Origin: an uncultured Spirochaetota bacterium
Lineage (GTDB): Bacteria > Spirochaetota > Spirochaetia > SZUA-6 > Fen-1364
Direction of reading: 5' to 3'
Length of the DNA stretch: 64,000 nt
Assembly: GCA_963753085.1 (NCBI GenBank)
Contig: CAVWBF010000022.1
Coordinates: 177,086 to 241,085, forward strand
Below, piece by piece: positions 34,987 to 55,781 of this stretch. A model generated the notes under the pieces. The model ran no database searches. It saw only the letters and a program-made list of their open reading frames with translations, and was not told the origin of the DNA. Every line of letters begins with the position of its first letter. Position 1 is the stretch's first letter. The position numbers were made by a program, and so were the translations under genes.

Positions 34987-35090
34987 CCAGGGATGGCGGA
35001 GCCGCGCCGAGCACAGGACGTGCGGAAGGCGCGGCAGTAGCCAGGGATGGCGGAGCCGCGCCGAGCACAGGACGTGCGGAAGGCGCGGCG
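34983..35090. repeat. Perfect 54-bp tandem duplication (two copies) spanning the stop of the upstream gene and the leader of the ADH gene
   Basis: Positions 34983-35035 are identical to 35037-35089, with a period of 54 nt. Each copy contains ATGGCGGAGCCG...: copy 1 closes a 15-codon mini-ORF, and copy 2 was called as the ADH start by the ORF finder. Confidence 0.85.
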
Positions 35091-35103
35091 AAAGGTGGTC
35101 CCC

Positions 35104-36069
35104 ATGGTGACGTCGCGCTACGCGGAGCTGGTCGCACAGCGCCAGATGGCTTTGAAAGAGGAAAAGCTCGAATGCGGGCACGACGAGATGCTGGTCCGCA
35201 CCACCCACTGCGGGCTGTGCCAGTACGACGGCAGCTACTTCAAGGGCATCATCGGCACCCTTCCCCAGAGGCTGGGGCATGAGCCGGTGGGCGTGGTGGA
35301 GCAGGTCGGGAAGAACGTTGCCGGTTTCAAGGTCGGTGATCGCGTGACGGGCCTGTTTGCCCATCTGCGCTCGTTCGCCACGTACTGCATCGCGGACCCG
35401 AAGCTCGCCGTGCCGGTGCCTCCGGGAGTGCCGTCGGAGCTCGCGCTGGGGGAGCCCTTGAAGTGCATTTCCACCATTGCCAGGGCCGCCAATCCGCAAT
35501 TCGGGGACCATGTGCTTCTCATCGGCGCGGGCTTCATGGGTCTCCTCGTGGTGGCCGCGCTGCGGGGAAGCGCGGAGGGACACCTGATCGTCGCCGACAT
35601 AAACGATGACCGCCTGAAGCTCGCACGTCAGTGCGGCGCCGCCGAGACACTGCGAAGCGACGACCCGGCGTTCCTGGATCGGGTCCGGGACCTGACGCGC
35701 GGCCACGGGATCGACGTGGCGGTGGAGGTTGTCGGCCTTCCGGCGCCCGCGGAGCTTGCCGCAAAGACCCTGCGCCGCGGCGGCCGCCCTCGGTACGTCC
35801 TGGCGGGATGGCACGGCCAGCCCGGCACGTTCACCCTGAGAAACTGGACCACGGTGGGGGCGGAGATCATCTCCGCGCACCCCTCGTATTCCCTCGACCC
35901 GATGGAAGATCTGCGCCGCGGCATGGACGCCCTGGCCAGGGGCGTCTTTCCCATGGAGAAGCTCGTCACTCACCGTTTTCCACTTTCGCGCGTGCAGGAG
36001 GGAATGGAAACGATGGTGGGAGGCACGCCCGGCTACATCAAGGGCGTGATCGAGATGGGCCGAGGTTAG
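35104..36069 (+). CDS. Zinc-dependent alcohol dehydrogenase (MDR family, threonine/sorbitol dehydrogenase-like)
   Basis: Catalytic-zinc ligands (C-G-H-E pattern, GHEPVG) and Rossmann motif GAGFMGLL. Start chosen at the ATG at 35104, which has an AAAGGTGG ribosome-binding site. The ORF-track start at 35047 lies inside the repeat. Confidence 0.8.
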   Translation: MVTSRYAELVAQRQMALKEEKLECGHDEMLVRTTHCGLCQYDGSYFKGIIGTLPQRLGHEPVGVVEQVGKNVAGFKVGDRVTGLFAHLRSFATYCIADPKLAVPVPPGVPSELALGEPLKCISTIARAANPQFGDHVLLIGAGFMGLLVVAALRGSAEGHLIVADINDDRLKLARQCGAAETLRSDDPAFLDRVRDLTRGHGIDVAVEVVGLPAPAELAAKTLRRGGRPRYVLAGWHGQPGTFTLRNWTTVGAEIISAHPSYSLDPMEDLRRGMDALARGVFPMEKLVTHRFPLSRVQEGMETMVGGTPGYIKGVIEMGRG

Positions 36070-36089: not shown

Positions 36090-37928
36090 TCAGAGCACCG
36101 AAAAATAGACGGCCCCCACGGCCTGCGCGAATTGCGCAACGGTGTAGCGGCCATCATCGCGCAGTTGACGCATGAGGCCCGTTGCCGCCAGGTCATCGTC
36201 AGCGACCTCGATCGCGAGGTCAGGGGAAACGCGCGAAGCGCCCTCCCTGATGAGTGCCATGCACGCTGGGTCTTTCACGACCCGACCGAACAGCACGGGG
36301 CGCATGACGCGCACACCAAGTATCTGCTTCGTTTCCCGACACGTCACGGCAAGATACTCGCCGATTTCCCGAAAAACGTCGCGGATCGTTTCATCTCGTC
36401 CTCCCGCCGCAAGGCGCATGAGGAGCTCGAGCAATGGCTTTCGCATGTCCCGGGGCTCGGTGGCAATGGATATCGTCCCGTCCTTCAGCGTGCAATAGCC
36501 GTCTCTGAAGATCTCGTCATACAGATCGGGCCGGCTCCTGCTGAAATGCTTGAGTGCCAGACGGAAGACGCCGCTCTGGCACACGTATTTCTGAACGGTG
36601 CCGGCCAGCCCGGTATTGAAGTTGTTGATGCTTCGCGGATCATCCGCGCCGAACTCCCGCTCGGGGAGACTGCCGAGATCGATGATGTAGTTGTACACTT
36701 CGAGGGGGATCTCCGGCAGGTGTCCCGCCGGGTCGAGCCATCCCGTGCCAAGCTCGGTCCCCAAGGTAAAGGCAATGATGCCGTCGTCGGCATTCCGCTG
36801 TCCCGAAACGGCACCTTCAAGCGCCGCGGTGAATGCTGCCATGGGTCCGTCGTTGATGTTTCTGAACCTCCCCCCAGGGCGGCAGAACGCTGAAAGCTTT
36901 CGGTCGAGGTTCGTGATCTGGGCGAAATCGGATTCGAAGTCGATGGCGGGGTTGCCCCTGATCCCCCGCGTCTTGTACACCTCCCCACCCACGATCTTGT
37001 TTCGAACCACGACATCGGGAAAACACATGCCGATGGCGTCCAGCCCCGCCAGATGGGGACCGAGGTACGTTTCCAGCTTGTCGACCGCGGCCCTGATCTC
37101 CTCGTCGCGCGCCCCCGCGCCTGCCACCGAGTCGAGCCGGGAGGCGAGTGTTTCACGCCGCTTCGCCGCGGGGATGCGCTCTACCGCGGCGCGCGCCCGC
37201 CCCCACCGCGCAAGCAGAGCGATGGGGTCAACGAGCTGGCGGGATTCCGTAAACCGGGCGGGGAACCAATCGTACTCCTTGTATCCGACGATGCGCTCGT
37301 GGACACACACGATCAGCTTGATATCGGTTCCTCCGATATCCATCCCGATTGCGGCGGCTCCCGCAAGGCGGCCGGGCACTTCTTTCAGCCGGGCGCTCAG
37401 TGGGGGCCCGTTCAAAGAGGCTGACGCGGCCGCCGAAGGAGGGGCCCGACCGATATCCTCGATGAAGAAACGAAACGACGCCGTCGGCGTTGTCGCCTCG
37501 TCAAGTGCGTCCGTCATCCGTTCCGCGACGTTGAGGCAGCGTCCGTAGCCCTGGCGGCGTCTCTTTGCCACGCCGGTTCCGAAACTGTCGTCGAGCGACT
37601 GGAGGAGGGCCGTGATGCCCTTTTCAGCAACGGGCCGGTAGAACGTCAGCGATCTGCCTCCGTAGGTGGAGAGGATGTTATAGACCCGTGCCTCCAGATA
37701 TCTGCGCATGAACGCTGACTGTTCCGCACTCGCGGCATCGGGCCGCGGCAGGGAAAGGGTGAACTCCCGGGCCTCGGGCTGGTCTGCCGCGCGCAGCGTC
37801 AGTCGGACCGGGACTGCGTCGGGATGACCATCCAGGGCATCGGAGACATCGGTGATGTACACCGGCCGTCCGCTCGATGCGGCTTCAAGGAATGAGTCAA
37901 TGCGTTCAACCAGGCTCTTCTTGCTCAT
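36090..37928 (-). CDS. ASKHA-superfamily (ROK/glucokinase-like) protein with a ~190-aa N-terminal extension. Co-operonic with GRE module 1.
   Basis: 612 aa. Phosphate-1 motif AIGMDIGGTDIKLIV and later ASKHA-like blocks (FTLGTELGTGWL). Its start overlaps the activase 3' end by 23 nt. Confidence 0.55.
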   Translation of the reverse strand: MSKKSLVERIDSFLEAASSGRPVYITDVSDALDGHPDAVPVRLTLRAADQPEAREFTLSLPRPDAASAEQSAFMRRYLEARVYNILSTYGGRSLTFYRPVAEKGITALLQSLDDSFGTGVAKRRRQGYGRCLNVAERMTDALDEATTPTASFRFFIEDIGRAPPSAAASASLNGPPLSARLKEVPGRLAGAAAIGMDIGGTDIKLIVCVHERIVGYKEYDWFPARFTESRQLVDPIALLARWGRARAAVERIPAAKRRETLASRLDSVAGAGARDEEIRAAVDKLETYLGPHLAGLDAIGMCFPDVVVRNKIVGGEVYKTRGIRGNPAIDFESDFAQITNLDRKLSAFCRPGGRFRNINDGPMAAFTAALEGAVSGQRNADDGIIAFTLGTELGTGWLDPAGHLPEIPLEVYNYIIDLGSLPEREFGADDPRSINNFNTGLAGTVQKYVCQSGVFRLALKHFSRSRPDLYDEIFRDGYCTLKDGTISIATEPRDMRKPLLELLMRLAAGGRDETIRDVFREIGEYLAVTCRETKQILGVRVMRPVLFGRVVKDPACMALIREGASRVSPDLAIEVADDDLAATGLMRQLRDDGRYTVAQFAQAVGAVYFSVL

Positions 37929-38835
37929 CCAGGACCCTTTTCACTCCCGCGTTCTGCAGAACCTGTCGGAACGCGGCAAGCTCGGGCGGCGAATAGCGCC
38001 GTGAATCGCTGGGGAATGCCCATCTCTGCCCGAGGCGCCGGTACTTCGCCTCCGCGAAGGGATTGAAGTTCAACAGCTCCACGGGAGGCTGCGGCTGGAG
38101 GCCGGCGACGATTCGCCCTATTCCTTGCAGGTTGGATTCAGTCGCCGTGAGCTCCGGGATGAGCGGTATTCGCACAACGAGATTCGCCCGAACGCGGATC
38201 AGGTACTGGAGGTTCCGGAGTATCGGTACGAGGGACCACCCCAGCAGTTCCCGGTGCCGGCGCTCGTCGGCAACCTTGACATCGACGAACACCTCATCCG
38301 TCACCCGAGCCATCGCCTCCACGTGCGAAAGCCGCGCGGCCAGGCATGTCTCGATGGCCGTGCCTGCTCCCTTCTTCCGGCAGCCGGCAAGCACCTCCAC
38401 GGCAAACTCAGGCTGCAGAAGCGGCTCGCCTCCGCTCAATGTCACTCCCCCCCGGGATACGTCGAAGAAGGTCTGGTCGCGGAGCAGCTCGCTGACCGCC
38501 TCCTCAGAGCTCATCTCCCGCGCATCGAAAGCCATTGCGCCGGTCGGGCACGCCTCTACGCATCTCCCGCACTTTGTGCACCGCGTTTCGTCGACACGCA
38601 CGTCGCGCACTGAATCCGCCACGGACAGCGCCGATTCCGCACAGACGTGGAGGCACGTCCCGCAGCCGATGCACCGCGCCGCCGTATGGAACAGCCTCTG
38701 CCCGGAGACCATCCCCTCCGGATTGTGGCACCAGGGGCACCGAAGGGGGCATCCCTTGAGAAAGAGCGTGCTCCGAAGGCCCTGCCCATCATGAATGGAG
38801 AAGCGCTTGCAGTCGAACACCCAGCCGGTGGTCAT
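37906..38835 (-). CDS. Glycyl-radical enzyme activating enzyme (radical SAM, with two auxiliary ferredoxin-like 4Fe-4S clusters)
   Basis: Radical-SAM motif CPLRCPWCHNPE after FDCKRFSIHDGQGLR. Two CxxCxxCxxxCP motifs (CIGCGTCLHVC; CTKCGRCVEACP). Its ATG overlaps the GRE stop as ATGA. Confidence 0.88.
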   Translation of the reverse strand: MTTGWVFDCKRFSIHDGQGLRSTLFLKGCPLRCPWCHNPEGMVSGQRLFHTAARCIGCGTCLHVCAESALSVADSVRDVRVDETRCTKCGRCVEACPTGAMAFDAREMSSEEAVSELLRDQTFFDVSRGGVTLSGGEPLLQPEFAVEVLAGCRKKGAGTAIETCLAARLSHVEAMARVTDEVFVDVKVADERRHRELLGWSLVPILRNLQYLIRVRANLVVRIPLIPELTATESNLQGIGRIVAGLQPQPPVELLNFNPFAEAKYRRLGQRWAFPSDSRRYSPPELAAFRQVLQNAGVKRVLDEQEEPG

Positions 38836-41204
38836 GATGACAACCCATGGGTTGTGCGCTCGATGATCTCCTCCTGGAGGTCAGCTGCCAGCTCGGTATA
38901 ATAGGCGGTGTATCCGGCCACCCGCACGGTGAGGTTCCGGTACCGGTCGGGGTTCTCGCGAGCAGCCCGCAAGTCCGCTTCGTTGATGACATTGAACTGT
39001 ACATGGCTGATCTTCAGGCGAACGAACGCGCGGAGGAATTGGGAAAAGGCCTTCAATCCACGCGCGTCTGCAAACAGCTCGGGAGAGAATTTCAGGTTCA
39101 ACAGGGTTCCATTGCTGCCGAGCTTTGAATCCACCCGGGCCACTGAATTGAGCACCGCCGTTGGTCCGTTCATATCCCTTCCGTAGAGCGCGGACATCCC
39201 TCCATCGGCAAGCGGCGTTCGCGCGCGCCTGCCGTCAGGAGTCGCGCCGACGTTCTGGCCCATGGGCACGTGCGCCGAGACCGTGTACAGACCAGTGTGG
39301 TAGCGCCCCCCCCTGGCGTTGGTGTACTTCCGCAGCCCCTCCGCGAACACCCTCACCCATGTATGCGCCAGCTCGTCAACCCACTCCACGTCGTTGCCGT
39401 ACTTCGGCGCCTTGTTCACGAGCCGGTGCATCAGAATCTGGTCGGACTGGAAATCCGTTTCCATGCCCCGCAGCACTTTCTCCGCGGTCACCACCTTCTC
39501 TTCGTACACCAGCTTCTTGAGGGCGGCCAGGCTATCCGCGACGTTGGCCGGCTGGATGGCCTGGATCCCCGACAGGTTGTAGTGGGCTCCGCCGCGCGTG
39601 ACGTCGACCCCCGTGTCGATGCAATCACGGATGACGGATGAGAGAAACGGGGTGGGCAGCAGCTCGCCATGGATCCGGTCCACGGTGTCGCAGCAGCGGA
39701 TCATGCGCCCGGTGAAGTGTTCGATCTGCCGGGCGAATGCCGCTTCGAGCTGCTCGAACGTGTGGAAATCGGTAAGTCTCCCGAGGTTCAGCCCGAGGGG
39801 CTTGCGGTCCACGAGGCAGAAGCCGCCCGTCAGCGTCAGCTCGAGCGCCTTGACGAGGTTGAACATGGCAGCGTCGCTCCAGCCCAGGTTGTTTCCGTGC
39901 GTGGTCAGCTCCACGCAGCCCACGATGGCGTAGTTGCGCGCGTCGGCCTCGGTGATGCCGACCCCCCGAAGCGCCGGAATCACCGCCTGGTCGCTGAACA
40001 CCTGCGGCATTCCGCTTCCTCTTCCAATGACCCGCGAACACGCCATGAGCAGGTCGTCGGGGCTGCCTTCGAACAGCCTGGCGGAGAGATTGGGCTGGGG
40101 GAGGCCGATCAGCTCCTGGGCCCTGAGGAAAAGGAAGGAGAGCTCGTTCGATGCATCCCGGCCGGCGCCGTCCTGGCCGCCGAGGGCGACGTTGAAGCCG
40201 ATGGGGAATCCCGCGAAATACTTTGCGCTGTGCGAATTGCGCAGGTAGACGATCTGGTTGAACTTGAGCCACAACGCGCATACCAGCTCCAGGGCGCCCG
40301 GCAGGTCCAGCGCCCCCGAGTCCAGGTCCGCCCGCATGTACGGGTACAAGTACTGGTCCACGCGGCCCGGGGAGAAGGAGGAAGCGTTGGATTCCATGTG
40401 GAGAATCACGAACAGGAACCAGACCGATTGAAGGGCTTCGCGGAAAGTGCGCGGCGGACGGTCGGCCAGGCCGTCGCAGATGCGTGCCACCCCGGCAAGC
40501 TCCTCATCGGCGGTCCCCGCCGGCCCGCTCGCCAATTCGCGTGCCAGTGCCGCGTACCGCCTCATGAACGTGCGGGCGCCTTCCAGGCTGAGAATCACCG
40601 CCTCGAAGAAGCGACCCGGATCACACCGCGTGCGGGCTCGCTCCTCCGCCTCCCGCTGCAGCCCCGCGGGTCCGAGACGCAGCCACCCTTCGGCGTCCGG
40701 GCAGATGTGGCCCTGGGCATGATCCTTCTGGTTGATCTTCACGACGCGCGCAATCGCGTCGATCTCCGGGCCGATCTCTTTCCTGATGGCGTCCTCGAGG
40801 GTGTGACCGGACCAGTACGGGAGGATCTCGTCACGGAAGGTCCGCACGTCCTCCGCGCGCACGTTGAACCGATCCTGCTCGCGCGTCGGGAGCTGCTCTA
40901 TTTCCTTGTCCACCCACGATATGCCTGCCTCGGGGAACACCACCCCGGCACGCACGCCGGCCGTCCGGTTGCCCACAATGAGCTCTCCCGGGTCTATCCG
41001 GATCTTCATCTCGCTCAGGCAGGCCTGGAGTGACCTCGCTCTTCGGACGATGACCGGCTCCCCCTCCGTCTCGCGGTACACTCTCGTGATTATTCCCGCC
41101 TGTTCTATTGAAAGGAACCGCGGCTCGGCCAGCATTTCGCTCTTGAGCTGCTCGAAGCGCCCGCTCAGCGGAAGCCGCTCTATCTCTGCGACATACTCAC
41201 GCAT
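38832..41204 (-). CDS. Glycyl radical enzyme, eliminase/dehydratase type (PFL superfamily), substrate unknown: GRE 1
   Basis: 790 aa. C-terminal glycyl-radical motif TVRVAGYTAYY and active-site block IVGCVELTTHGNN (the Cys-x-Glu typical of 1,2-eliminases such as glycerol/propanediol dehydratase, CutC and HypD). Confidence 0.9.
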   Translation of the reverse strand: MREYVAEIERLPLSGRFEQLKSEMLAEPRFLSIEQAGIITRVYRETEGEPVIVRRARSLQACLSEMKIRIDPGELIVGNRTAGVRAGVVFPEAGISWVDKEIEQLPTREQDRFNVRAEDVRTFRDEILPYWSGHTLEDAIRKEIGPEIDAIARVVKINQKDHAQGHICPDAEGWLRLGPAGLQREAEERARTRCDPGRFFEAVILSLEGARTFMRRYAALARELASGPAGTADEELAGVARICDGLADRPPRTFREALQSVWFLFVILHMESNASSFSPGRVDQYLYPYMRADLDSGALDLPGALELVCALWLKFNQIVYLRNSHSAKYFAGFPIGFNVALGGQDGAGRDASNELSFLFLRAQELIGLPQPNLSARLFEGSPDDLLMACSRVIGRGSGMPQVFSDQAVIPALRGVGITEADARNYAIVGCVELTTHGNNLGWSDAAMFNLVKALELTLTGGFCLVDRKPLGLNLGRLTDFHTFEQLEAAFARQIEHFTGRMIRCCDTVDRIHGELLPTPFLSSVIRDCIDTGVDVTRGGAHYNLSGIQAIQPANVADSLAALKKLVYEEKVVTAEKVLRGMETDFQSDQILMHRLVNKAPKYGNDVEWVDELAHTWVRVFAEGLRKYTNARGGRYHTGLYTVSAHVPMGQNVGATPDGRRARTPLADGGMSALYGRDMNGPTAVLNSVARVDSKLGSNGTLLNLKFSPELFADARGLKAFSQFLRAFVRLKISHVQFNVINEADLRAARENPDRYRNLTVRVAGYTAYYTELAADLQEEIIERTTHGLSS

Positions 41205-41309
41205 ATCATCCCTTTGTCACGTCATTTCTCCCGCCGAAAGCATATCGCTCAACCAGGGCGGGAAACAACTCAGAAAACTGGCAGGAAAGTGCAGAAAAGT
41301 GAAGTCGAA

Positions 41310-42113
41310 TCAACCCGCGAGCTGCTTTTTGCGGAATTCCCTCGGAGACAAGCCCGTCTCCTTCTTGAAAATGCGGGAGAAATACCTCGCGCCGTCGAAG
41401 CCGACATGCTCGGCGATCTCCTCCACCGTCAGGCGCCGATCGAGAAGGAGAAGCTTGGTCTTGTCGATCCTGACAAGGTTGCGATAGTGCATGGGGGTCA
41501 CGCGCATCTTCCGCTTGAAGATGCGAAAAAGATAGGAGGAGCTCACCGAGATTGTTTGCGCGAGCGTCTCGATGCCGAAATCGCTTCTGTAATGCTCATG
41601 GATGTAACTGAGACAGCGTTCGACCTGGGTATCATTCTCCCGTGACCTCTCGCGGTAGCTCTGCCTGATCAGAAGGAAAAGAGTCTTGAGGCAGGAGGCG
41701 ATCACGTCACCAGCCAGGGCGCGCTTTCCGGTGAACTCGAGATAGATGATCTCGAAGAGCTCCCGCATGACGCCCCGCAGGTCCTTGAGCTTGATGGCAT
41801 GACCGAAGGAAGGACACGGGCCCAGGTCGGCCCAGATGCAGATGATTTCCTGCCGGGTGCCCAATTCGAGGTGTTCCTGGTGGGAGAGGCCGGGCGGATA
41901 GACTACGACGTCGAAGAGCGAGATGTCGATGGATTCATCACCGACCTCGATTGTTGCCTTCCCCTCGATGAAGAAGATGAGCTCGAAATAGGGATGTGAG
42001 TGTTTTTGAAAATTCCAGATGCTGCTCCTGCCGTCGAAACGCTCGCACCACTTCGCGGTCGCGCGGTCAAGGCGAAGATTTTCCAAAAAAGTGGATATCG
42101 ATTCATCCGGCAT
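41310..42113 (-). CDS. AraC-family transcriptional regulator (N-terminal cupin sensor, C-terminal HTH)
   Basis: 267 aa. Cupin-like N-terminus (HSHPYFELIFFIEGKATIE) and AraC HTH (IAEHVGFDGARYFSRIFKKETGLSPREFR). Sits directly upstream of GRE 1 on the same strand. Confidence 0.85.
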   Translation of the reverse strand: MPDESISTFLENLRLDRATAKWCERFDGRSSIWNFQKHSHPYFELIFFIEGKATIEVGDESIDISLFDVVVYPPGLSHQEHLELGTRQEIICIWADLGPCPSFGHAIKLKDLRGVMRELFEIIYLEFTGKRALAGDVIASCLKTLFLLIRQSYRERSRENDTQVERCLSYIHEHYRSDFGIETLAQTISVSSSYLFRIFKRKMRVTPMHYRNLVRIDKTKLLLLDRRLTVEEIAEHVGFDGARYFSRIFKKETGLSPREFRKKQLAG

Positions 42114-42397: not shown

Positions 42398-43345
42398 ATG
42401 GCAAGAATGAAGAGAGCTTTGATCATCGGGACCGTGTTGCTGTTAGCGGTGGCTTTCGGAGCGAGCGCTCAAGCCAAGTTGGTCAAGGCGGCGTTCGTCA
42501 TCTCGAACGCGGCCAATGAATCACAGGCGTTCTCGTCGAAGCAGTTCCTCAAGTTCGGGTCGCAGTTCGGCTTCGACATGTACACCTTCGACGCGAAGGG
42601 TGATACGCAGGCCGAGTCGCAGATCGTGACGAACTGCATCGCGCAGAAGTTCAAGGTCATTTTCCTGAACCCGAACGACATCAGCGCTATTGTCCCCGCC
42701 ATCATCAAGGCCAAGGCGGCTGGCATGATCGTGGGCATGTTCTCCTCCGACCTCGCGCCGGAGAACCAGAAGTACCGTGACTTCTACGCGGGTGTCAACG
42801 ATACAATGGCAGGCCAACAGGCTGCCCAGGCATTCATGAAGCACTTCCCGAGCGGAGCCAAGATCGTGGAGATCGGCGGCCAGGCGGGTCACGACGCCCA
42901 GATCAAGCGACATGATGGTTTCAATGGCGCCCAGGGGATCAAAGGTTCGAATATCCAGGTCCTCGACTACAAGGCCTGCCAGCAGTGGGCGACCGACCAG
43001 GCGCAGGCCATCATGGAAGATGACATCGTGAAGTACGGCAGCGATATCCAGGGCGTGTTCGTCCATTGGGACAACGGAGCAACCGGCGTGATCCAGGCGG
43101 CCAAGGCCGCGGGCATCACGGGCCTGTACATCGTCGGAGTGGACGGCAACCGCGCCGGCTACTACCAGGTTCAGAGCGGCGACCAGGCGGTCAGCATCGC
43201 CCAGGACTTCGTGCTCATGACCAAGACGGACCTCGGCCTCGCTCGAGACGTCCTGGCCGGCAAAAAGGTTAAGCAGATCAACTACGTCCCGCTCTTCGTC
43301 GTCGACAAGAGCTCCATCGCGAGTTTCGATCCGCCCGAGTGGTAG
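42398..43345 (+). CDS. Sugar ABC transporter periplasmic substrate-binding protein (type I PBP, ribose/monosaccharide class)
   Basis: 315 aa with a signal peptide (LIIGTVLLLAVAFGASAQA). Sequence pattern consistent with RbsB-like PBP1 binding proteins. First gene of the ABC operon. Confidence 0.8.
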   Translation: MARMKRALIIGTVLLLAVAFGASAQAKLVKAAFVISNAANESQAFSSKQFLKFGSQFGFDMYTFDAKGDTQAESQIVTNCIAQKFKVIFLNPNDISAIVPAIIKAKAAGMIVGMFSSDLAPENQKYRDFYAGVNDTMAGQQAAQAFMKHFPSGAKIVEIGGQAGHDAQIKRHDGFNGAQGIKGSNIQVLDYKACQQWATDQAQAIMEDDIVKYGSDIQGVFVHWDNGATGVIQAAKAAGITGLYIVGVDGNRAGYYQVQSGDQAVSIAQDFVLMTKTDLGLARDVLAGKKVKQINYVPLFVVDKSSIASFDPPEW

Positions 43346-43418
43346 GATCCGCATAGTCTGAAAGGCTCGTTTCGCCTCTGGCGGGACGAGCCTTGTTCTA
43401 CTATCTTCACTCAAGGAT

Positions 43419-44924
43419 GTGACCATGGAAGCAGCCGGCTCTGAGGTCATCTTGTCCATCAGGGACGTGAGCAAGTCTTTCCCCGGGGTCAAGGCCCTGG
43501 ATCGGGTCTCCATCGATTTCCGGCGCGGCACGGTGCACGGCATCGTCGGCGAAAACGGCGCGGGCAAGTCGACGTTGATGAAGATCCTGTCCGGCGTCTA
43601 CCAGAAGGACAGCGGGACGATCGAGTTCGACGGGGCGCGCGTCGAGCACACAACACCGCACCAGTCCATGCAGAGCGGGCTGGCGATCATCTACCAGGAG
43701 CTCAACCTCGTCAACACGATGAGCGTCGGGGAGAACGTCTTCCTCGGCCGGTTCAAGGAAATGAAGGGCATGAGGGGCACCCATGCCAGGGCGCGGGAGC
43801 TCCTGGACAGCATCGGCAGCACGGTGCCCACCACGAGGCTGGTATCAGAGCTTTCCGTGTCAGAGAAGCAGATGGTGGAGATCGTCAAGGCCCTGTCCTT
43901 CCAGTCGAAGCTCATCATCATGGACGAGCCCAGCTCGAGCCTCACCGCGGAAGAGATGGCCGAGCTGATCACAATCATCCGCCAGCTCAAGGAGAAGGGG
44001 ATCTCGATCATCTACATCAGCCACAAGCTCGACGAGATCTTCCAGTTCTGCGACGTGGTGAGCGTGATGCGGGACGGACGGGTGGTGGACACCAAGGCTG
44101 TGGCCGAGTTCACGCGCAACGAGCTGATCTCCAAGATGGTCGGCCGCACGATAGAGAACGAGTATCCTCCGCGCCCTCACAGCGTGGGAGAGGTCGTGAT
44201 GGAGGTCCGTTCCATCAAGACCCACAAGCTCCACGACATCTCGTTCAAGCTTCACAAGGGCGAGATCCTGGGGCTTGTCGGCCTGGTCGGTGCGGGCCGC
44301 ACCGAGATCGTCCGGGCCATCTACGGCGCTGACAAGGCACGCGGACACGAGGTCCTCCTGGGCGGCAAGCCCGCGACCATTCGCAACCCCAGGCATGCCA
44401 AGGACTTCGGCATCGGGCTGATTCCGGAAGACCGCAAGCTCCAGGGCCTCGTCCTGCCCTTTTCCGTTGAATCGAACATTTCCATGGGGAGCATAGGGAA
44501 GTTCAGCCGGCTCGGCTTCATCCGCCGTTCGCTGGAAAAGGGCATCGGGGCCCGCCAGGTGGAGGCCCTGTCGATCAAGACGCCCTCGACACGGGTTGCC
44601 GTGAACAACCTCTCCGGCGGCAACCAGCAGAAAGTCATCGTCGGGCGATGGCTGGAGATCTCACCGCAGATCTTCATCATGGACGAGCCGACCCGGGGCA
44701 TCGACGTCGGCGCCAAGTACGAGATCTACCTCCTGATGAAAAGGATCGTCGAGGCGGGAGGATCGATCATCCTCATCTCCTCCGAGCTTCCCGAGGTGCT
44801 CAACATGGCAAACCGTGTGCTGACGATATTCGAGGGACGGGTCACCGGGGAGTTCTCCCCTGAGAAGACCCCGGTTGACGAGATCATGAAGGCCGCGCTG
44901 GGCCTCGAGGGAGGCGCTGCATAG
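43419..44924 (+). CDS. Sugar ABC transporter ATP-binding protein with two fused nucleotide-binding domains (RbsA/MglA-like)
   Basis: 501 aa. Walker A GENGAGKST, signature LSGGNQQKV, and a second nucleotide-binding domain with GLVGAGRTE. The true start may be the ATG at 43425. Confidence 0.9.
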   Translation: MTMEAAGSEVILSIRDVSKSFPGVKALDRVSIDFRRGTVHGIVGENGAGKSTLMKILSGVYQKDSGTIEFDGARVEHTTPHQSMQSGLAIIYQELNLVNTMSVGENVFLGRFKEMKGMRGTHARARELLDSIGSTVPTTRLVSELSVSEKQMVEIVKALSFQSKLIIMDEPSSSLTAEEMAELITIIRQLKEKGISIIYISHKLDEIFQFCDVVSVMRDGRVVDTKAVAEFTRNELISKMVGRTIENEYPPRPHSVGEVVMEVRSIKTHKLHDISFKLHKGEILGLVGLVGAGRTEIVRAIYGADKARGHEVLLGGKPATIRNPRHAKDFGIGLIPEDRKLQGLVLPFSVESNISMGSIGKFSRLGFIRRSLEKGIGARQVEALSIKTPSTRVAVNNLSGGNQQKVIVGRWLEISPQIFIMDEPTRGIDVGAKYEIYLLMKRIVEAGGSIILISSELPEVLNMANRVLTIFEGRVTGEFSPEKTPVDEIMKAALGLEGGAA

Positions 44925-44926
44925 CC

Positions 44927-45919
44927 ATGGCAGAAGTTGCGATGCGCGTGGGAAGGAACCCGGTGGCCAGGGCCGCGCAGGCCTTCTTCCGGGACTACCT
45001 GGTCCTGGTGATGATCGCGGTGCTGGTCACCATCACGGCGATCGTAGAACCCAAGTTCCTCAATCCGCGGAACCTGACCAACATCATGCGCCAGTTCGGG
45101 CCTCTCATGATGGTCTCACTCGGCATGACCTTCGTCATCATCGGCGGCTTCATTGACCTCTCGGTGGCCGGCATCATAAACCTCGTCGCCGTGGTCACCA
45201 TCTCCCTGATCGGTCCGTTGGGGCAGGTACCCGCTCTCCTGGCCGGCCTGACAATCGGGGCCGCATGCGGGGCGCTCAACGCTGCCGCCATCCTGACCTC
45301 GGGGGCTCTCACCCAGGCTGAAGCGCTGTTCCTCACCTTCGGCATGAGCACGGTGTTCTCGGCCTTTGCCCTGCTGTACAGCGGGGGCATGACGATGCAC
45401 TTCTGGGACATCAAGACGAGCAAGGCGATGTTCGAGACGATCGGTGCCGGGACCGTGGGCCCGTTCTCCGTTTCGTTCGTGATTTTCCTGGTGGTGCTTC
45501 TGATTCTCTGGATCTTCCAGACCAAGACGACAGAGGGACGGGCCATCAGCCTCACGGGAGGCAACAAGACGGCTGCGCGCCTCAGCGGCATCCGAATATT
45601 GCGGAGCATTTTCGTGATCTACGTGGTCTGCGGCCTGATGACAGGGGTGGGGGCCATCGTCCTGTTCTCCCGGATCACCACGGCCGCCCCCGTCATCGGC
45701 GCGGGCTACGAAACCAACGCCATCCTTTCGGTCGTCGTCGGAGGCACCACGCTGAAAGGGGGCAAGGGGAGCGTCCTGCGCACCGTGATGGGCGTGCTCC
45801 TTGTCATCCTCATGTCCAATTGCCTTGACCTCCTTGGTGTCTCGACCTACCTCCAGGTGGTTACGAAGGGCGCAATCCTGATCCTCGCGATCTGGCTCGA
45901 CAACCGCAAGCAGGTGTAG
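44927..45919 (+). CDS. Sugar ABC transporter permease (RbsC-like, BPD_transp_2)
   Basis: 330 aa, polytopic membrane protein directly after the ATPase. Confidence 0.85.
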   Translation: MAEVAMRVGRNPVARAAQAFFRDYLVLVMIAVLVTITAIVEPKFLNPRNLTNIMRQFGPLMMVSLGMTFVIIGGFIDLSVAGIINLVAVVTISLIGPLGQVPALLAGLTIGAACGALNAAAILTSGALTQAEALFLTFGMSTVFSAFALLYSGGMTMHFWDIKTSKAMFETIGAGTVGPFSVSFVIFLVVLLILWIFQTKTTEGRAISLTGGNKTAARLSGIRILRSIFVIYVVCGLMTGVGAIVLFSRITTAAPVIGAGYETNAILSVVVGGTTLKGGKGSVLRTVMGVLLVILMSNCLDLLGVSTYLQVVTKGAILILAIWLDNRKQV

Positions 45920-45930
45920 GAGGTACGGCC

Positions 45931-46920
45931 ATGGCAGGCAACGCAATCGGGGCGAGGATGACGGGAAACGGAGTCAGCGCGAGGATATACTCGTTTGTCA
46001 TGAGGCAGAAGGCATTCGTCGCCATCATCGTGATGCTGGCCGTGATGCTCTTCTCCCCCAGACATTTCTACACCGCCTACAACCTCCTCGACATGCTCAA
46101 CTCCACGTCGATCCTTCTCATCCTCTCCTTCGGGGTCACGCTCACCATCATCGCGGGCGGCTGCGACCTCTCCATCGGGGGGATCCTCGTGGTCTCTGGC
46201 ATCCTGTCCATCAAGCTCCAGGACGTGATGCCCATGGAGCTTGCCATCGCCGCCGCCGTGATCTTCGGCGTGGTGGTCGGCTTCGTGAACGGATTCCTCT
46301 CCGTCCACCAGAAGACGGAGCCGTTCATCATCACACTCGGCATGGGCCTCCTGCTCACCGGCGTGGCCCAGCAGCTCACCGACGCCCATCCGGTGCCCGC
46401 GAAGAATCCCGCCTTCATGGTGATCGGGAACGGGGATTTCCACGGGGTGCCCAACCTCGTGATAATCACGGTGGTCTGCTTCGCCCTGGCGTTCTGGCTC
46501 ATGCGCTACACCCAGTTCGGCCGCAACCTCTACGCGATCGGCGGGGACTACGAGGTTGCGCGCTACTCGGGCATCCCGGTCATCCGAACGAAGTGGATTG
46601 CCTTCGTGATCAGCGGCGGCGCTGCCGGCCTGGCAGGAATGCTTCTCTCTTCCAAGCTGAACACCGGCTCCTCGATCTACGGCGACCTGACCGCCCTCGT
46701 GGTGAACTGCGGCGTCGTGGTCGGGGGAACCTCGTTCGCGGGCGGCATCGGAGGAATCCCGCAATCGGGCCTCGGCCTCCTGGTGTTCGGCATGCTCGAC
46801 AACGTGATGAACATGCTCGCGATCAAGTCCTACTACCAGGTATTGTTGAAGGGCGCGGTCATCGTGGCGATCATCTGGCTCGATTGCTTCGCTCAGAAGA
46901 GGAAGCGCGAGTTTGTCTGA
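45931..46920 (+). CDS. Sugar ABC transporter permease (second RbsC-like subunit)
   Basis: 329 aa, a paralogous permease. Last gene of the transporter operon. Confidence 0.85.
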   Translation: MAGNAIGARMTGNGVSARIYSFVMRQKAFVAIIVMLAVMLFSPRHFYTAYNLLDMLNSTSILLILSFGVTLTIIAGGCDLSIGGILVVSGILSIKLQDVMPMELAIAAAVIFGVVVGFVNGFLSVHQKTEPFIITLGMGLLLTGVAQQLTDAHPVPAKNPAFMVIGNGDFHGVPNLVIITVVCFALAFWLMRYTQFGRNLYAIGGDYEVARYSGIPVIRTKWIAFVISGGAAGLAGMLLSSKLNTGSSIYGDLTALVVNCGVVVGGTSFAGGIGGIPQSGLGLLVFGMLDNVMNMLAIKSYYQVLLKGAVIVAIIWLDCFAQKRKREFV

Positions 46921-47885: not shown

Positions 47886-48794
47886 GTGCCTGCGGACAAA
47901 GACATGATTTTTAACATACAACGATTCTCCACGCACGATGGGCCGGGCATACGTACGATAGTCTTCTTCAAAGGGTGCGCTTTGCACTGTCCCTGGTGCG
48001 AGAATCCCGAGAGCCAATCCTTCAGGCAGGAGCTTGCCTGGGACGAGAGGAAGTGCATCGGCTGCCTCGACTGCGTGCACGCGGCAAAGGACGGAGAAGC
48101 GGTGGCCGAAAAGGGCAGGCCGGTGTTTCACCGCCGGAAGATCGGTGACCCTGGCGCGCTTGCCAGCGTGTGCCCCACTGGAGCCTTGGCCGTCCTGGGG
48201 GAGGAAACAACGGTTTCCCAGATCGTGCAGGAAGTCCAGAAGGACGTTGCCTTCTATAGAAAGAGCGGCGGCGGGGTCACCATTTCAGGCGGCGAGCCCT
48301 ACGATCAGCCCGCTTTCCTGCTGGAGCTCCTGAATGCGCTGGGCGGGATTGGCGTTACCGTAGCAATAGAGACCACCTTGAGCGTTCCCTGGAGCGCAAT
48401 CGAGCCCAGCCTCCCGGGGGTAGAGGCATTCCTCGTGGACATCAAGCATGCCAACGCGCAGACGCTGAGAAGCGTTACGGGCGGAAATCTTCCCCTCATC
48501 GTCGGCAACTTGCGGAAGCTGGAAAGCCTGCACGCCCGGGTGACCATCCGCGTCCCCGTGATTCCCGGTTTCAACGACGCGGGATCGGATATGGCCGACA
48601 TCGTGGATCTGGCGGCGTCACTGGAGAACGTGAGGGAGATCCACTTCCTGCCGTTTCACACGCTAGGCATCGGCAAGTATCGCCTGCTTGGAAAGGAATA
48701 CCGTTTTTTGAAGGAAGCCGGGCCCGCGGAAGATATGCAAGAATGGATCGACCTTGCTCGCAGCAAGGGGCTGGAAGCCGGCATTGGAGGATAG
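47886..48794 (+). CDS. Glycyl-radical enzyme activating enzyme 2 (radical SAM with auxiliary 4Fe-4S clusters)
   Basis: CALHCPWCENPE radical-SAM motif after FNIQRFSTHDGPGIR. CIGCLDCVHAA and a second cysteine cluster. GTG start, though the true start may be the ATG at 47904. Confidence 0.88.
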   Translation: MPADKDMIFNIQRFSTHDGPGIRTIVFFKGCALHCPWCENPESQSFRQELAWDERKCIGCLDCVHAAKDGEAVAEKGRPVFHRRKIGDPGALASVCPTGALAVLGEETTVSQIVQEVQKDVAFYRKSGGGVTISGGEPYDQPAFLLELLNALGGIGVTVAIETTLSVPWSAIEPSLPGVEAFLVDIKHANAQTLRSVTGGNLPLIVGNLRKLESLHARVTIRVPVIPGFNDAGSDMADIVDLAASLENVREIHFLPFHTLGIGKYRLLGKEYRFLKEAGPAEDMQEWIDLARSKGLEAGIGG

Positions 48795-48795
48795 A

Positions 48796-51210
48796 GTGGA
48801 AGCAACCCGAATCAAGCCCATGGTGTCGGACCGGATCGCAAAGCAGAAGGACCGGCTCCTGAAGACAAGGCCGACCGTGTGCGTCGAGCGCGCCCGCATC
48901 TACACCGAGTGCTACCGCCGCAACCAGGACCAACCCCTCGTCATTACCCGGGCGCTGGCACTCGAAGAGACGCTTCGCGGGATGAGCATCTACATCGATG
49001 ACGGGGAGCTCACCGTCGGCAACCAGTCCTCCAGGCCGCGGGCAGCGCCCATTTTCCCCGAGTACGCGGTGGGGTGGATCCTCAATGAGCTGGACGCGTT
49101 TGCCGGGAGGCCGGGAGATGCTTTCTACCCGACGGAAGAGGCCAAGGCGGCGCTGCGCGAGATCTGCCCATGGTGGCAGGGAAAGACTCTTTTCGAAAAG
49201 GGTACCGCCCTGCTGCCTCCCCTCATGCGGGAGATCCACGATGCGGAGATCATCCGAGCGGAGGGCAACCTGACCTCGGGTGACGGCCATATTGCCGCGA
49301 ACTTTCCCCGGATCCTTTCGGAAGGCCTGGGCGGGTACCGCCAGCGTGTTGCCCGCAAGCGGGAAGCACTGGACCTCTCCGACTGGGCGGACCTCAGAAA
49401 GGAGCAGTTCTACCGCGCCGTGGACATCGCGCTCACCGGGCTTTCCGCCTTCATACGTCGATTCGAGGAACGGGCCCGCCTCATGGGCGCGCAGGAAAGC
49501 GATCCGGCCCGGCGGGAGGAGCTGGAGACGATCTCCCGAAACTGCGCGGTCATTGCCGAACGGCCGCCTGAGGATTTCCACCAGGCGCTTCAGCTTGTCT
49601 ACTTTGTCCATCTGGTTCTCCAGATCGAGAGCAACGGGCACTCGGTTTCTCTTGGCCGGGCTGACCAGTACCTGTACCCGTTCTATGCCCGTGACGTGGA
49701 GGCGGGGCGGCTCAAAGAGGATTTCGCTCGAGAGCTCCTGGAAAGCACGTGGCTGAAGCTCTTCTCCATCAACAAGATACGGTCCTGGTCGCATACCCGG
49801 TTTTCCGCGGGAAGCCCGTTGTACCAGAACGTGACCATCGGCGGGCAGACCCGCCGGGAAAAGGACGCGGTAAATCCGCTCAGCTTCCTGATCCTCGAGT
49901 CGGTGGGAAATCTCCGCCTCCCCCAGCCAAACCTCAGCGTACGCTACCACCGGGAGCTGGGCGATGACTTCCTCTCCGCATGCATCTGCGTGATCGAGAA
50001 GGGCTTCGGGATGCCTGCCTTCAAAAATGATGAGATCATCATCCCCGCCCTCATCAGGCAGGGGGTTGAACGGGAGGACGCTTTCGATTACTCGGCCATC
50101 GGGTGCATCGAGGTGGCCGTGCCCGGCAAGTGGGGCTACCGGTGCACCGGCATGAGCTTCCTCAATTTCCCCCGGGTGCTGCTTGCAGCGCTTCGAAACG
50201 GCCATGACAGCAGGTCCGGAAAGACCTTCTGTCCCGGCACGGGAAGTTTGGAGAACTTCTCCGGCTTCGACGACGTGATGAAAGCCTGGGAAAAACAGGT
50301 GAAGTTCTACGCAGGCGCCACCGTTGCCATCGACACCGCGGTGGACACCGCGTTGGAGGAAAACGTTCCCGATATCCTGTGCTCCGCCCTGGTGGATGAC
50401 TGCATCGATCGGGGGAAGACCCTGAAGGAGGGAGGAGCGAAATACGATTTCATCTCCGGCCTCCAGGTCGGGATCGCCAACCTGGGAAACTCACTTGCCG
50501 CCATCAGGAAGCTCGTCTTCGAGGAAAAGAAAATCGGCAAGGCGGAGCTCATGGAGGCGCTGGAGAAAAACTTCGAAGGCGCGGCGGGGGAGAAGATCCG
50601 CCAGCTCCTCCTCAATCGCGCTCCCAAGTACGGAAACGACGATGACTCGGTGGACCTGCTCCTGCGGGACGCCTACACGGTGTTCATCGACGAGCTCTCC
50701 CGGTACCACAACACGCGCTATGGCAGGGGCCCCATCGGGGGGACCTATTACGCCGGGACCTCCAGCATCTCAGCCAACGTTCCCTCGGGGTCAGTGGTTC
50801 CGGCAACGCCGGACGGCCGCAAAGCCTGGACGCCCCTGGCGGAGGGATGCTCCCCATCGTCGGGAACGGACACCCGGGGACCCACCGCCGTCTTCAAGTC
50901 CGTCGCAAAGCTCCCGACGGAGAAGATCTGCGGGGGGGTGCTCCTGAACCAGAAGCTTTCCCCCGCGGCAATTGCCTCCCCGGCGGACAAGGAGAAGCTC
51001 GCCGCGCTCCTCCGCGCATTCTTCGATGACCTGAAGGGCTGGCACGTGCAGTACAACATCGTCTCGCGCCAGACTCTGCTCGCCGCCCAGAAGGCCCCGG
51101 AGAGCTACCGGGACCTCGTGGTGCGCGTGGCCGGCTATTCGGCCCTCTTCACGACACTTGCGCCGGAGACGCAGAACGATATCATCGCCCGTACGGAGCA
51201 CAGCCTGTAA
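48796..51210 (+). CDS. Glycyl radical enzyme, eliminase/dehydratase type, substrate unknown: GRE 2, a paralog of GRE 1
   Basis: About 805 aa. Glycyl-radical motif VVRVAGYSALF and active-site block AIGCIEVAVPGKWG (Cys-x-Glu). GTG start 5 nt after a GGAGG ribosome-binding site and immediately after the activase stop. The ORF track begins earlier, at 48754. Confidence 0.9.
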   Translation: MEATRIKPMVSDRIAKQKDRLLKTRPTVCVERARIYTECYRRNQDQPLVITRALALEETLRGMSIYIDDGELTVGNQSSRPRAAPIFPEYAVGWILNELDAFAGRPGDAFYPTEEAKAALREICPWWQGKTLFEKGTALLPPLMREIHDAEIIRAEGNLTSGDGHIAANFPRILSEGLGGYRQRVARKREALDLSDWADLRKEQFYRAVDIALTGLSAFIRRFEERARLMGAQESDPARREELETISRNCAVIAERPPEDFHQALQLVYFVHLVLQIESNGHSVSLGRADQYLYPFYARDVEAGRLKEDFARELLESTWLKLFSINKIRSWSHTRFSAGSPLYQNVTIGGQTRREKDAVNPLSFLILESVGNLRLPQPNLSVRYHRELGDDFLSACICVIEKGFGMPAFKNDEIIIPALIRQGVEREDAFDYSAIGCIEVAVPGKWGYRCTGMSFLNFPRVLLAALRNGHDSRSGKTFCPGTGSLENFSGFDDVMKAWEKQVKFYAGATVAIDTAVDTALEENVPDILCSALVDDCIDRGKTLKEGGAKYDFISGLQVGIANLGNSLAAIRKLVFEEKKIGKAELMEALEKNFEGAAGEKIRQLLLNRAPKYGNDDDSVDLLLRDAYTVFIDELSRYHNTRYGRGPIGGTYYAGTSSISANVPSGSVVPATPDGRKAWTPLAEGCSPSSGTDTRGPTAVFKSVAKLPTEKICGGVLLNQKLSPAAIASPADKEKLAALLRAFFDDLKGWHVQYNIVSRQTLLAAQKAPESYRDLVVRVAGYSALFTTLAPETQNDIIARTEHSL

Positions 51211-51226
51211 CCGGAGGGAACGGGGC

Positions 51227-52939: not shown

Positions 52940-52971
52940 AGAGGGCGTCCGGAACGAGCCGGGCCGCCGCT

Positions 52972-54111: not shown

Positions 54112-54128
54112 GGCGCTATGAAACCGTA

Positions 54129-55744: not shown

Positions 55745-55781
55745 TGGTTCCTCCCGATAAGTAGGCGATTTCCCCAATCTA

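Follow-up and report, generated by a model that had tools for sequence, protein, structure and literature searches.

X612, a divergent ROK/hexokinase-like protein encoded with a PflD-like glycyl radical enzyme: a predicted kinase for a PTS-independent anhydro-sugar route

The GRE1 module and its 612-residue partner

The stretch of DNA considered here, referred to as the window, comprises 64,000 nucleotides of contig CAVWBF010000022.1 from an uncultured Spirochaetota bacterium (about 63% G+C) and encodes two glycyl radical enzymes (GREs), each with its own activase; the subject of this work is the 612-residue product of an open reading frame (ORF) that follows the first of these pairs, named X612, which is put forward as a candidate sugar kinase. 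An AraC-family regulator, GRE1, its activase AE1 and X612 lie on one strand, divergent from an ATP-binding cassette (ABC) sugar transporter, and the closest relative of the window is a Spirochaetia metagenome-assembled genome (MAG) with an X612 protein of 97% identity. These genes are present as described, and at the coordinates given, in a first-pass annotation made from the letters of the sequence; the ATGA overlap joining the stop of GRE1 to the start of AE1, also noted there, can be read directly (...TCATCATGACCACC), and the coordinates (Table 1) give the 23-nt overlap between AE1 and X612. That annotation had further placed a second, paralogous GRE-activase module in the window, which is found as GRE2 and AE2 at 47886-51210, and had expected 35-45% identity between the two GREs, which on alignment turn out to be 37% identical. 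The Zn-dependent alcohol dehydrogenase reported downstream does converge on X612 across a gap of 20 nt, but it is not a conserved partner and was rejected as a member of the pathway or module, homologues occurring in only 4 of 80 X612 loci, at about 25% identity. Scans for promoters, terminators and Rfam families around the operon gave no signal above chance.

Table 1. Genes and domains of the two modules and their neighbours, with positions in the window
Feature	Position	Strand	Remarks
Zn-dependent alcohol dehydrogenase	35047-36069	+	ADH_N + ADH_zinc_N; converges on X612
X612, 612 aa	36090-37928	-	start MSKKSLVER
X612 kinase core, ~residues 191-612	36090-37358	-	ROK/hexokinase-like ASKHA fold (AF2 + Foldseek)
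X612 N-terminal domain, ~residues 1-190	37359-37928	-	alpha/beta; stand-alone AF2 model
Activase AE1, 309 aa, radical-SAM with ferredoxin-like insert	37906-38835	-	TIGR02494; Radical_SAM + Fer4
GRE1, 790 aa	38832-41204	-	PFL-like + Gly_radical (Pfam)
AraC-family regulator	41310-42113	-	upstream of GRE1, divergent from ABC operon; HTH_18 2.5e-22, HTH_AraC, Cupin_2 (Pfam)
ABC sugar transporter	42398-46920	+	divergent from AraC; Peripla_BP_4, ABC_tran x2, BPD_transp_2 x2
ABC binding protein, RbsB/XylF/AlsB-like	42398-43345	+	Pfam; NCBIfam RbsB/XylF-like
ABC double ATPase	43419-44924	+	ABC_tran x2
ABC permeases, two	44927-45919 and 45931-46920	+	BPD_transp_2 x2
Shikimate-dehydrogenase-like oxidoreductase, probably 287 aa	46947-47810	-	start likely M108 of ORF running to 48131; Shikimate_dh_N + SDH_C
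Module 2: AE2, GRE2, ROK kinase, DeoR regulator	47886-52939	+	
Activase AE2	47886-48794	+	Pfam
GRE2, YbiW orthologue	ORF 48754 to 51210, probable start near 48820	+	Pfam, PDB-sequence match
Canonical ROK-family kinase, frameshifted	51227-52199	+	directly after GRE2; ROK 7e-45, profile positions 2-195 of 318
DeoR-family regulator	52196-52939	+	HTH_DeoR + DeoRC; ATGA overlap with ROK stop

Sequence searches with X612 return no match in Pfam, NCBIfam or, by phmmer, among PDB sequences, and none to the Pfam ROK model PF00480 at E<=1; the family profile searched against PDB sequences recovers only the HgdC activator 1hux, at an insignificant E-value of 0.57. Weak PF00480 matches occur in only 6 of 60 family members (best 1.7e-6), and weak, sub-threshold matches to Pfam BcrAD_BadFG in 14 of the same 60. 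It is the structure, and not the sequence, that bears out the ASKHA/ROK-like call of the first-pass annotation: the AlphaFold2 (AF2) model, for which 60 homologues were used, is of high confidence (pLDDT 91.5, pTM 0.90), its ASKHA core begins at strand 192-198, and the top 50 Foldseek matches in the PDB are mostly ROK glucokinases, N-acetylmannosamine (ManNAc) and N-acetylglucosamine (GlcNAc) kinases, ROK repressors and hexokinases (best E-value 1e-10; best target TM-scores 0.66-0.74; identity 11-18%). The core carries the motifs G195-x-D197-x-G-G-T-D-x-K204, C/S302-F-P-D305, N359-D360-G-P-M-A-A, T388-L-G-T-E-L-G-T-G-W397, E410-V-Y-N413 and Q446, the first of them on the opening strand, together with about 120 residues of helical insertions relative to ROK. 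An hhalign comparison of the X612 profile with a single ROK kinase, whose probability of 2.4% makes it a guide to register only, pairs NDGPMAAFTAA with ROK ENDANVAALAE, the segment of the catalytic Asp, TLGTELGTGW with the phosphate-2 motif TLGTGIGGGI, and PLEVYN with the ExGH motif SELGH; this register agrees with the placement expected from the structural match.

Conservation within the family follows the same positions. In an alignment of 81 X612 sequences from at least six phyla, D197, G199, G200, K204, N359, D360, G390, T391, G394, G396, E410, N413 and Q446 are invariant, and these appear, as judged from the aligned motifs, to be the ATP-phosphate motifs, the catalytic base and the sugar-holding positions of ROK kinases. 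The ASKHA assignment is thus carried by the fold (AF2, Foldseek) together with the invariant D197-x-G-G-T201 and G390-T-E-L-G-T-G396, and the catalytic N-D motif of ROK kinases and hexokinases is present as N359-D360 in 81 of 81 sequences, aligned with ROK E-N-D. The ROK zinc motif CxCGxxGCxE and the ExGH motif are absent from X612, which reads NFNTGLxGTLQ446KY (with no Cys) and E410-V-Y-N413 instead. The Cys pair of HgdC/BcrAD-type proteins is likewise missing, only C556 being invariant and C302 being replaced by Ser in 12 of 81 sequences, and an archerase or Fe-S role for X612 was rejected on this ground. Because the ATP-phosphate, catalytic and sugar-holding positions are invariant, X612 would be expected to work like a ROK/hexokinase-type sugar kinase, and the model points to it most likely being a very divergent, Zn-less predicted kinase of this type that lies outside Pfam ROK.

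GRE1 is a member of the GRE superfamily by its Pfam domains (PF02901 PFL-like, 647 bits; PF01228 Gly_radical, 89.5 bits) and by the glycyl-radical motif RVAGY at 761-765, in which G764 is the radical glycine. Its Cys loop, V-G-C430-V-E432-L, has the C-x-E signature of the eliminase and isomerase classes, and the CXE motif is kept in GRE isomerases (PMC13450708 section 5.7). The strongest NCBIfam match is to TIGR01774 (771 bits) and the best PDB sequence matches are those of PflD (8yjo/8id0); GRE1 shares 42% identity with E. coli PflD and 35% with YbiW. AE1 matches TIGR02494 at 295 bits against a cutoff of 174 and has the radical-SAM and Fer4 domains of a GRE activase. GRE2 is 60% identical to E. 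coli YbiW and matches the YbiW structure sequences 8id7/8yjn at 1057 bits. The label of eliminase first given to both GREs is imprecise, as the relationship to PflD and YbiW would place them in the class of ring-opening C-O lyases, or GRE isomerases; YbiW and PflD act in this way on 1,5-anhydroglucitol-6-phosphate and 1,5-anhydromannitol-6-phosphate (AM6P), respectively (PMC13450708 section 5.7; PMC12441222 section 5.1, summarising Ma et al. 2024). The anhydro-hexitols are phosphorylated in E. coli during import by the phosphotransferase system (PTS) (PMC13450708 section 5.7; PMC12441222 section 5.1), and the product, 1-deoxyfructose-6-phosphate, is split by FsaA or FsaB (PMC13450708; PMC12441222). 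Of the two possibilities raised in the first-pass annotation, the one in which the two GREs serve two related pathways is supported.

A neighbour-joining (NJ) tree was made from 134 GRE1-like proteins; with YbiW as the outgroup, it shows the GRE1 and PflD clades as sisters. By these sequences, the GRE1 clade is a third clade of PflD/YbiW-like GREs of the anhydro-sugar type. Within it nests a subclade of PTS-linked enzymes that have Frw-type PTS and FSA aldolase genes alongside and whose Cys loop is nearly the same as that of the others (GCVELTTQGN-NLGWSD against GCVELTTHGN-NLGWSD). A PTS necessarily delivers a phosphorylated sugar. Given the nesting of the PTS-linked enzymes, the near-identical Cys loop and this mode of delivery, the GRE1 clade most likely acts on a phosphorylated substrate. 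Seven loci of the PTS-linked kind (L121, L126, L136, L139, L149, L155 and L164), mostly on human-gut metagenome contigs, have the order Frw-like PTS, GRE, activase, FSA; the gut enzymes are only about 42% identical to PflD despite this E. coli pflD-like layout.

Conservation of the linkage and the choice of importer

A scan of one genome per species finds X612 in at least 329 species genomes, of which the best 80 loci were used for the synteny counts, and in 63 of these 80 X612 stands beside a PflD-like GRE or its activase. The commonest order, in 49 loci, is the collinear GRE1-type gene (about 60% identical), activase and X612; a GRE1-type gene lies nearby in another arrangement in 8, and activase-X612 is cut by the contig end in 6. 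One locus, from Propionivibrio, has the order PflD-type GRE, activase, GMC oxidoreductase, X612, and 16 loci, 11 of them with short flanks, have no GRE. X612 is divergent from GRE1-AE or does not adjoin AE in L027, L069, L080, L024 and L030. The linkage extends over Spirochaetota, Bacillota, Planctomycetota, Pseudomonadota, Myxococcota and Chloroflexota. Among the other genes of the window, an ABC transporter of the same type is present in 39-47 of the 80 loci, the shikimate-dehydrogenase-like gene in 34 (60-78% identity), an AraC homologue in 27, a ROK kinase in 18 and a YbiW-like GRE in 17.

Two loci are particularly informative. The Vallitalea longa locus reads Fe-dependent alcohol dehydrogenase (Fe-ADH), GRE, AE, X614, FSA aldolase, ABC transporter, which is the complete E. 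coli gene set with the X612 homologue X614 and the ABC transporter standing where E. coli has the Frw PTS. In Propionivibrio, the GRE that accompanies X612 and an ABC transporter is a true PflD orthologue, sharing 69% identity with the E. coli protein, and in the X612 tree the Propionivibrio proteins nest among the GRE1-paired ones, which suggests that GRE1-type and PflD-type GREs use the same kinase product. In a Spirochaetota MAG (contig CAVUXE010000075.1; L009/L079), two GRE1-activase-X612 modules flank one ABC transporter, with X612 proteins that share 88% and 46% identity with that of the window; GRE and kinase appear to have been duplicated there as a pair.

The linkage was also examined in the reverse direction, starting from 80 metagenome loci seeded with GRE1 (57-70% identity). 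Thirty-six are collinear GRE1-AE-X612, in one more X612 lies at another place in the locus, and a further 30 lack it although 2.9 kb or more of sequence follows downstream, so that X612 is present in 37 of 67 evaluable loci. Frw-type PTS genes (40-68% identical to E. coli FrwC, FrwB or PtsA) are found in none of the 37 X612-positive loci against 8 of the 30 X612-negative ones (Fisher p=9e-4), and homologues of PtsA, FrwB, FrwC and FrwD are absent from the window and from 82 X612 loci. The ABC transporter shows the opposite distribution, with 16 of 33 X612-positive against 2 of 47 X612-negative loci, and so does the shikimate-dehydrogenase-like gene (14 of 33 against 2 of 47). Where the PTS is missing, the ABC importer and X612 most likely take its place.

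In a minority clade of X612 (L017 8909-11827; L042 8924-11878; L078 9033-11833; also L070 and L084), neither a GRE nor an activase is encoded within 10 kb. The X612 gene of this clade lies immediately after a Glk-family glucokinase in Planctomycetota or a ROK kinase in Clostridia, and all the putative active-site residues of its product are the same as in the GRE-linked clade.

Proposed pathway and alternative roles of X612

The reading favoured here, which is judged probable though with appreciable room for doubt, is that the AraC regulator, GRE1-AE1-X612 and the divergent ABC transporter form a PTS-independent route of 'anhydroglycolysis' in which X612 is the pathway kinase. The RbsB-type ABC transporter would import a neutral, pyranose-like polyol in unphosphorylated form, most likely 1,5-anhydro-D-mannitol. 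X612 would then phosphorylate the polyol with ATP, Asp360 serving as the base and N359, E410, N413 and Q446 holding the sugar hydroxyls; we infer its activity as a kinase, the nature of its substrate, the position that takes up the phosphate and the placing of this step ahead of the GRE. AE1 would install the glycyl radical at G764 of GRE1, and GRE1, through a thiyl radical at C430 and with E432 as base, would open the ring of the phosphorylated sugar to give a 1-deoxy-ketose phosphate, to be cleaved by an aldolase encoded elsewhere. More speculatively, the shikimate-dehydrogenase-like protein and, in other X612 genomes, the pyranose-oxidase-like GMC oxidoreductases might convert 1,5-anhydroglucitol, 1,5-anhydrofructose and anhydromannitol into one another ahead of phosphorylation, so that anhydromannitol might arise from either of the first two after their import. 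Module 2, with AE2, the YbiW-like GRE2 and the canonical ROK kinase, would do likewise for the glucitol epimer; since that ROK kinase, on which the first-pass annotation of this module is silent, comes right after GRE2, one kinase per GRE is the natural reading, and it would explain why a kinase follows each GRE in the window.

Several observations weigh against this assignment. The hhalign probability is low, and the motif register of X612 thus rests mainly on the structural match. The kinase model leaves unexplained the 190-residue N-terminal domain and the approximately 100 invariant residues of the family, many of them Arg or Lys (R321, R324, R432, R456, R496, K497, R549 and K552 among the basic ones), and the natural fusion of an activase to X612, described below, would be unusual for a purely metabolic kinase. 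GRE1 scores below the cutoff of the PflD equivalog NF007437 (737 against 1109 bits), and this, together with the 42% identity to PflD, means that its substrate may differ from AM6P. The 64-kb window contains neither the expected downstream FSA aldolase nor a GldA-type reductase, and in the GRE1-seeded loci FSA is depleted where X612 is present (2 of 33 against 15 of 47 X612-negative loci; p=0.006), so that the downstream chemistry may differ; an FSA gene is present in X612 locus L020. Finally, a simple hexose kinase would seem redundant beside the glucokinase or ROK kinase of the GRE-less clade.

Some of these points would be accommodated if X612 were a kinase of the same pathway acting at another step or on another molecule, whether on the 1-deoxy-ketose product of the GRE, on a sugar phosphate that would receive a second phosphate, or with pyrophosphate or polyphosphate as donor, in which case GRE1 in ABC-type clusters would take a non-phosphorylated or different substrate. 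The modest resemblance of GRE1 to PflD and its score under the equivalog cutoff fit such a role, as do the depletion of FSA and enrichment of the shikimate-dehydrogenase-like gene, which point to altered flanking chemistry, the many invariant Arg and Lys residues, which would suit an anionic substrate, and the glucokinase-X612 and ROK-X612 pairs, which oppose plain hexose-kinase redundancy. Nevertheless, PTS-linked and X612-linked GRE1 enzymes fall in one clade with a near-identical Cys loop and so probably share one phosphorylated substrate, and the true PflD orthologue with which X612 also pairs corresponds to an E. coli enzyme that acts on AM6P; this alternative is accordingly given a small, though real, share of the probability. 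The first-pass annotation was right to single out X612 as an unusual ASKHA partner of the GRE, but the chaperone-like, repair or activation factor that it listed beside a kinase is disfavoured relative to a substrate kinase replacing the PTS, on account of the invariant residues, the GRE-less clade and the exclusion of the PTS. An ATP-dependent accessory of this kind, contacting the activase or the GRE as a chaperone, as a repair factor or as a gate coupling the activase to ATP or substrate, would account for the position of the X612 gene directly after the activase, translationally coupled here and in 49 of 80 genomes, for the activase-X612 fusion found on four contigs, for the novel N-terminal domain and the unusually high conservation of X612, and for the faint BcrAD_BadFG and HgdC signals in the profile searches. 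Yet neither a chaperone nor an electron-gating ATPase needs the catalytic Asp and all the ROK sugar-binding positions that are invariant in X612; no Fe-S ligand pair is conserved; the GRE-less clade keeps an identical active site and the N-terminal domain with neither GRE nor activase within 10 kb; X612 is divergent or apart from AE in the five loci named above; GRE1-clade enzymes in PTS-type clusters occur without X612; and HgdC-type proteins are not among the top 50 fold matches. The evidence against an accessory role is stronger than that for it, and such a role is considered unlikely. The chances are likewise low for a combined role in which X612 is a substrate kinase that does something more, its N-terminal domain forming a complex with the activase and thereby coupling ATP or substrate to radical installation, or channelling the phosphorylated sugar into the GRE; the natural fusion hints at a complex of this sort.

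The appearance of the ROK repressors 5f7q, 3bp8 and 4ija among the fold matches, and of an extra N-terminal domain that recalls repressor architecture, brings to mind a non-catalytic, ROK-like sugar sensor or regulator of the Mlc/NagC type. The N-terminal domain has, however, no winged-helix or helix-turn-helix (HTH) match in Pfam or the PDB, X612, unlike repressors, keeps the catalytic Asp and both ATP-phosphate motifs (phosphate-1 and phosphate-2) invariant, and dedicated AraC and DeoR regulators are already present; the lack of an HTH and the intact catalytic motifs led to the rejection of a ROK-repressor identity, and a sensor role in general is very improbable. That X612 might merely be a neighbour unconnected in function with the GRE, the case in which the first-pass annotation would have abandoned its idea, could be argued from the minority clade with no GRE nearby, but the synteny counts refute it: in at least six phyla, and in 63 of 80 species genomes, X612 stands by a PflD-like GRE or activase, 37 of 67 evaluable GRE1-seeded loci carry it, and the linkage thus goes well beyond what chance would give.

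The N-terminal extension of about 190 residues noticed at the outset is real and folds confidently, a model of it alone reaching an AF2 pLDDT of 89.6, and it has no fold match in the PDB at E<=1e-3 (best TM about 0.3). Its conserved residues are Y83-N84, S87, G90, F116, R125, Y128-G129-R130, N133-V134, R137 and F152/F154, and the domain is kept in the GRE-less clade; it seems to belong to the enzyme proper and not to serve for docking to the GRE. X612 forms a sharply delimited family: a search of 1.84 billion cluster representatives with the family profile finds only 416 proteins, nearly all full-length members or fragments. At HMMER profile sensitivity, the N-terminal domain is not seen outside the X612 family among these representatives, and the profile recovers no canonical ROK proteins from them. 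Homologues carry the label 'hypothetical protein' in public annotations. Natural fusions occur within the family: a 901-residue activase (radical SAM + Fer4)::X612 protein (P0191; L087 8001-10706) is present on four contigs, its locus reading ABC, DeoR, GRE (791 aa), AE::X612, GRE (802 aa), AE, fucose-isomerase-like, and X612-like regions are fused to aldose 1-epimerase and PRK/uridine kinase in P0268 (2826 aa) and to DUF218 in P0262 (1178 aa).

The shikimate-dehydrogenase-like protein encoded between the ABC transporter and module 2 matches TIGR00507 (aroE) at 218 bits against a cutoff of 200 and keeps the catalytic K/D motifs NCTIPHK and GENTDG. It reads GHPVAENPG in the place where E. coli AroE has what we take to be the carboxylate-binding GNPIAHSKSP, and it is more conserved across phyla (60-78% identity) than X612. 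This variant motif, the cross-phylum conservation and the enrichment in X612-positive loci together suggest a substrate other than shikimate.

In module 2, the ROK gene is broken near 51905-51935, the N-terminal part stopping at TGA 51932-51934 and the C-terminal part (NDALCRAVVREYADYSGIGLYNLFQIFNPDVFVLGGG...) reading on to 52199 in a different frame. A run of G at about 51905-51920 is close to the break, which is either an assembly error or a pseudogene. A 353-residue minus-strand ORF at 52145-53206, at first taken as a co-conserved unknown, has no domain match and was discarded as an antisense artefact of the DeoR gene. Downstream of module 2, 52972-55777 of the minus strand encodes a GFO/IDH/MocA oxidoreductase, an RmlD-type reductase and a weak ribulose-phosphate-3-epimerase (RPE)-like TIM barrel. 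Among NCBIfam models, the oxidoreductase comes closest to levoglucosan dehydrogenase, with 257 bits where the cutoff is 650. In L032, L065 and L072 the GFO and RPE-like genes are again found together with ROK and GMC genes, and L039 has the RPE-like, ROK and GMC genes only. This group may be a further anhydro-sugar module.

To our knowledge, radical 'anhydroglycolysis' was described only in 2024 and only in the PTS-dependent form of E. coli. X612 is predicted to supply the missing phosphorylation step of a PTS-independent, ABC-based form, which would be widespread in environmental and gut anaerobes, among them Spirochaetota, Clostridia, Planctomycetota, Propionivibrio, Anaeromyxobacter and Chloroflexota, and a predicted function is thereby given to a widespread 'hypothetical' family for which neither Pfam nor NCBIfam has a model. 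The family also defines a structurally unassigned domain of 190 residues, and its shikimate-dehydrogenase-like companion may widen the range of substrates to 1,5-anhydrofructose or 1,5-anhydroglucitol. Should X612 prove to have the extended role in complex with the activase, no ATP-dependent ASKHA partner would have preceded it in any glycyl radical enzyme system, and the gut enzymes of the GRE1 clade deserve a substrate assignment of their own. Literature searches, which did not reach Ma et al. JACS 2024 itself, found no described anhydro-hexitol kinase or X612 family.

Comparison with known systems

The nearest described counterpart of the GRE1 module is the E. coli frwCB-pflDC-frwD/fsaB/gldA cluster (gldA-fsaB-ptsA / frwC-frwB-pflD-pflC-frwD / yijO), both having a PflD-type CxE GRE, its own activase, an AraC-type regulator and sugar import alongside. 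The AraC regulator that the first-pass annotation had placed upstream of GRE1, which its HTH_18/HTH_AraC and cupin domains bear out, is 32% identical over the HTH region to YijO, the AraC-type regulator that likewise adjoins E. coli pflDC. The module differs from its E. coli counterpart in having an ABC transporter and X612 and no PTS, in a GRE that belongs to the sister clade (42%), in the absence of FSA and GldA from the window and in the added shikimate-dehydrogenase-like gene; the X614 cluster of Vallitalea longa is closer to frw-pflDC in that it has the genes for the FSA aldolase and the GldA-type Fe-ADH. Module 2 corresponds in turn to E. coli ybiW-ybiY / fsaA, with 60% identity between GRE2 and YbiW and an activase of its own in both, but in place of reliance on a PTS the genes after GRE2 in the window encode a ROK kinase and a DeoR regulator; module 2 thereby helps to explain the GRE1 module by analogy.

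With regard to X612 itself, the archerases of the HgdC/BcrAD type are similar in being ASKHA ATPases encoded by oxygen-sensitive radical enzymes, and weak sub-threshold echoes of them are found in sequence; they differ in that X612 has no Cys pair for a bridging [4Fe-4S] cluster and conserves the catalytic residues of sugar kinases. The ROK kinases (glucokinase 2qm1/3vgk, N-acetylmannosamine kinase 6q27/2aa4, GlcNAc kinase 7p7w) have the ASKHA fold in common with X612 (target TM-scores 0.66-0.74), and their DxGxT, N-D and GTG motifs, like the Glu that contacts the sugar, lie at equivalent positions, whereas the identity is only 11-18%, the zinc motif is replaced by NFNTGLxGTLQKY and ExGH by EVYN, and X612 has in addition its helical insertions and its N-terminal domain. 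Eukaryotic hexokinases and glucokinases differ from X612 by a query TM-score of only 0.36-0.38, the absence of sequence similarity and another N-terminal architecture, but they resemble it as larger ASKHA kinases, align with it over 510-540 columns and accept 1-deoxy analogues of pyranoses, mammalian hexokinase phosphorylating 1,5-anhydroglucitol (PMC12441222).

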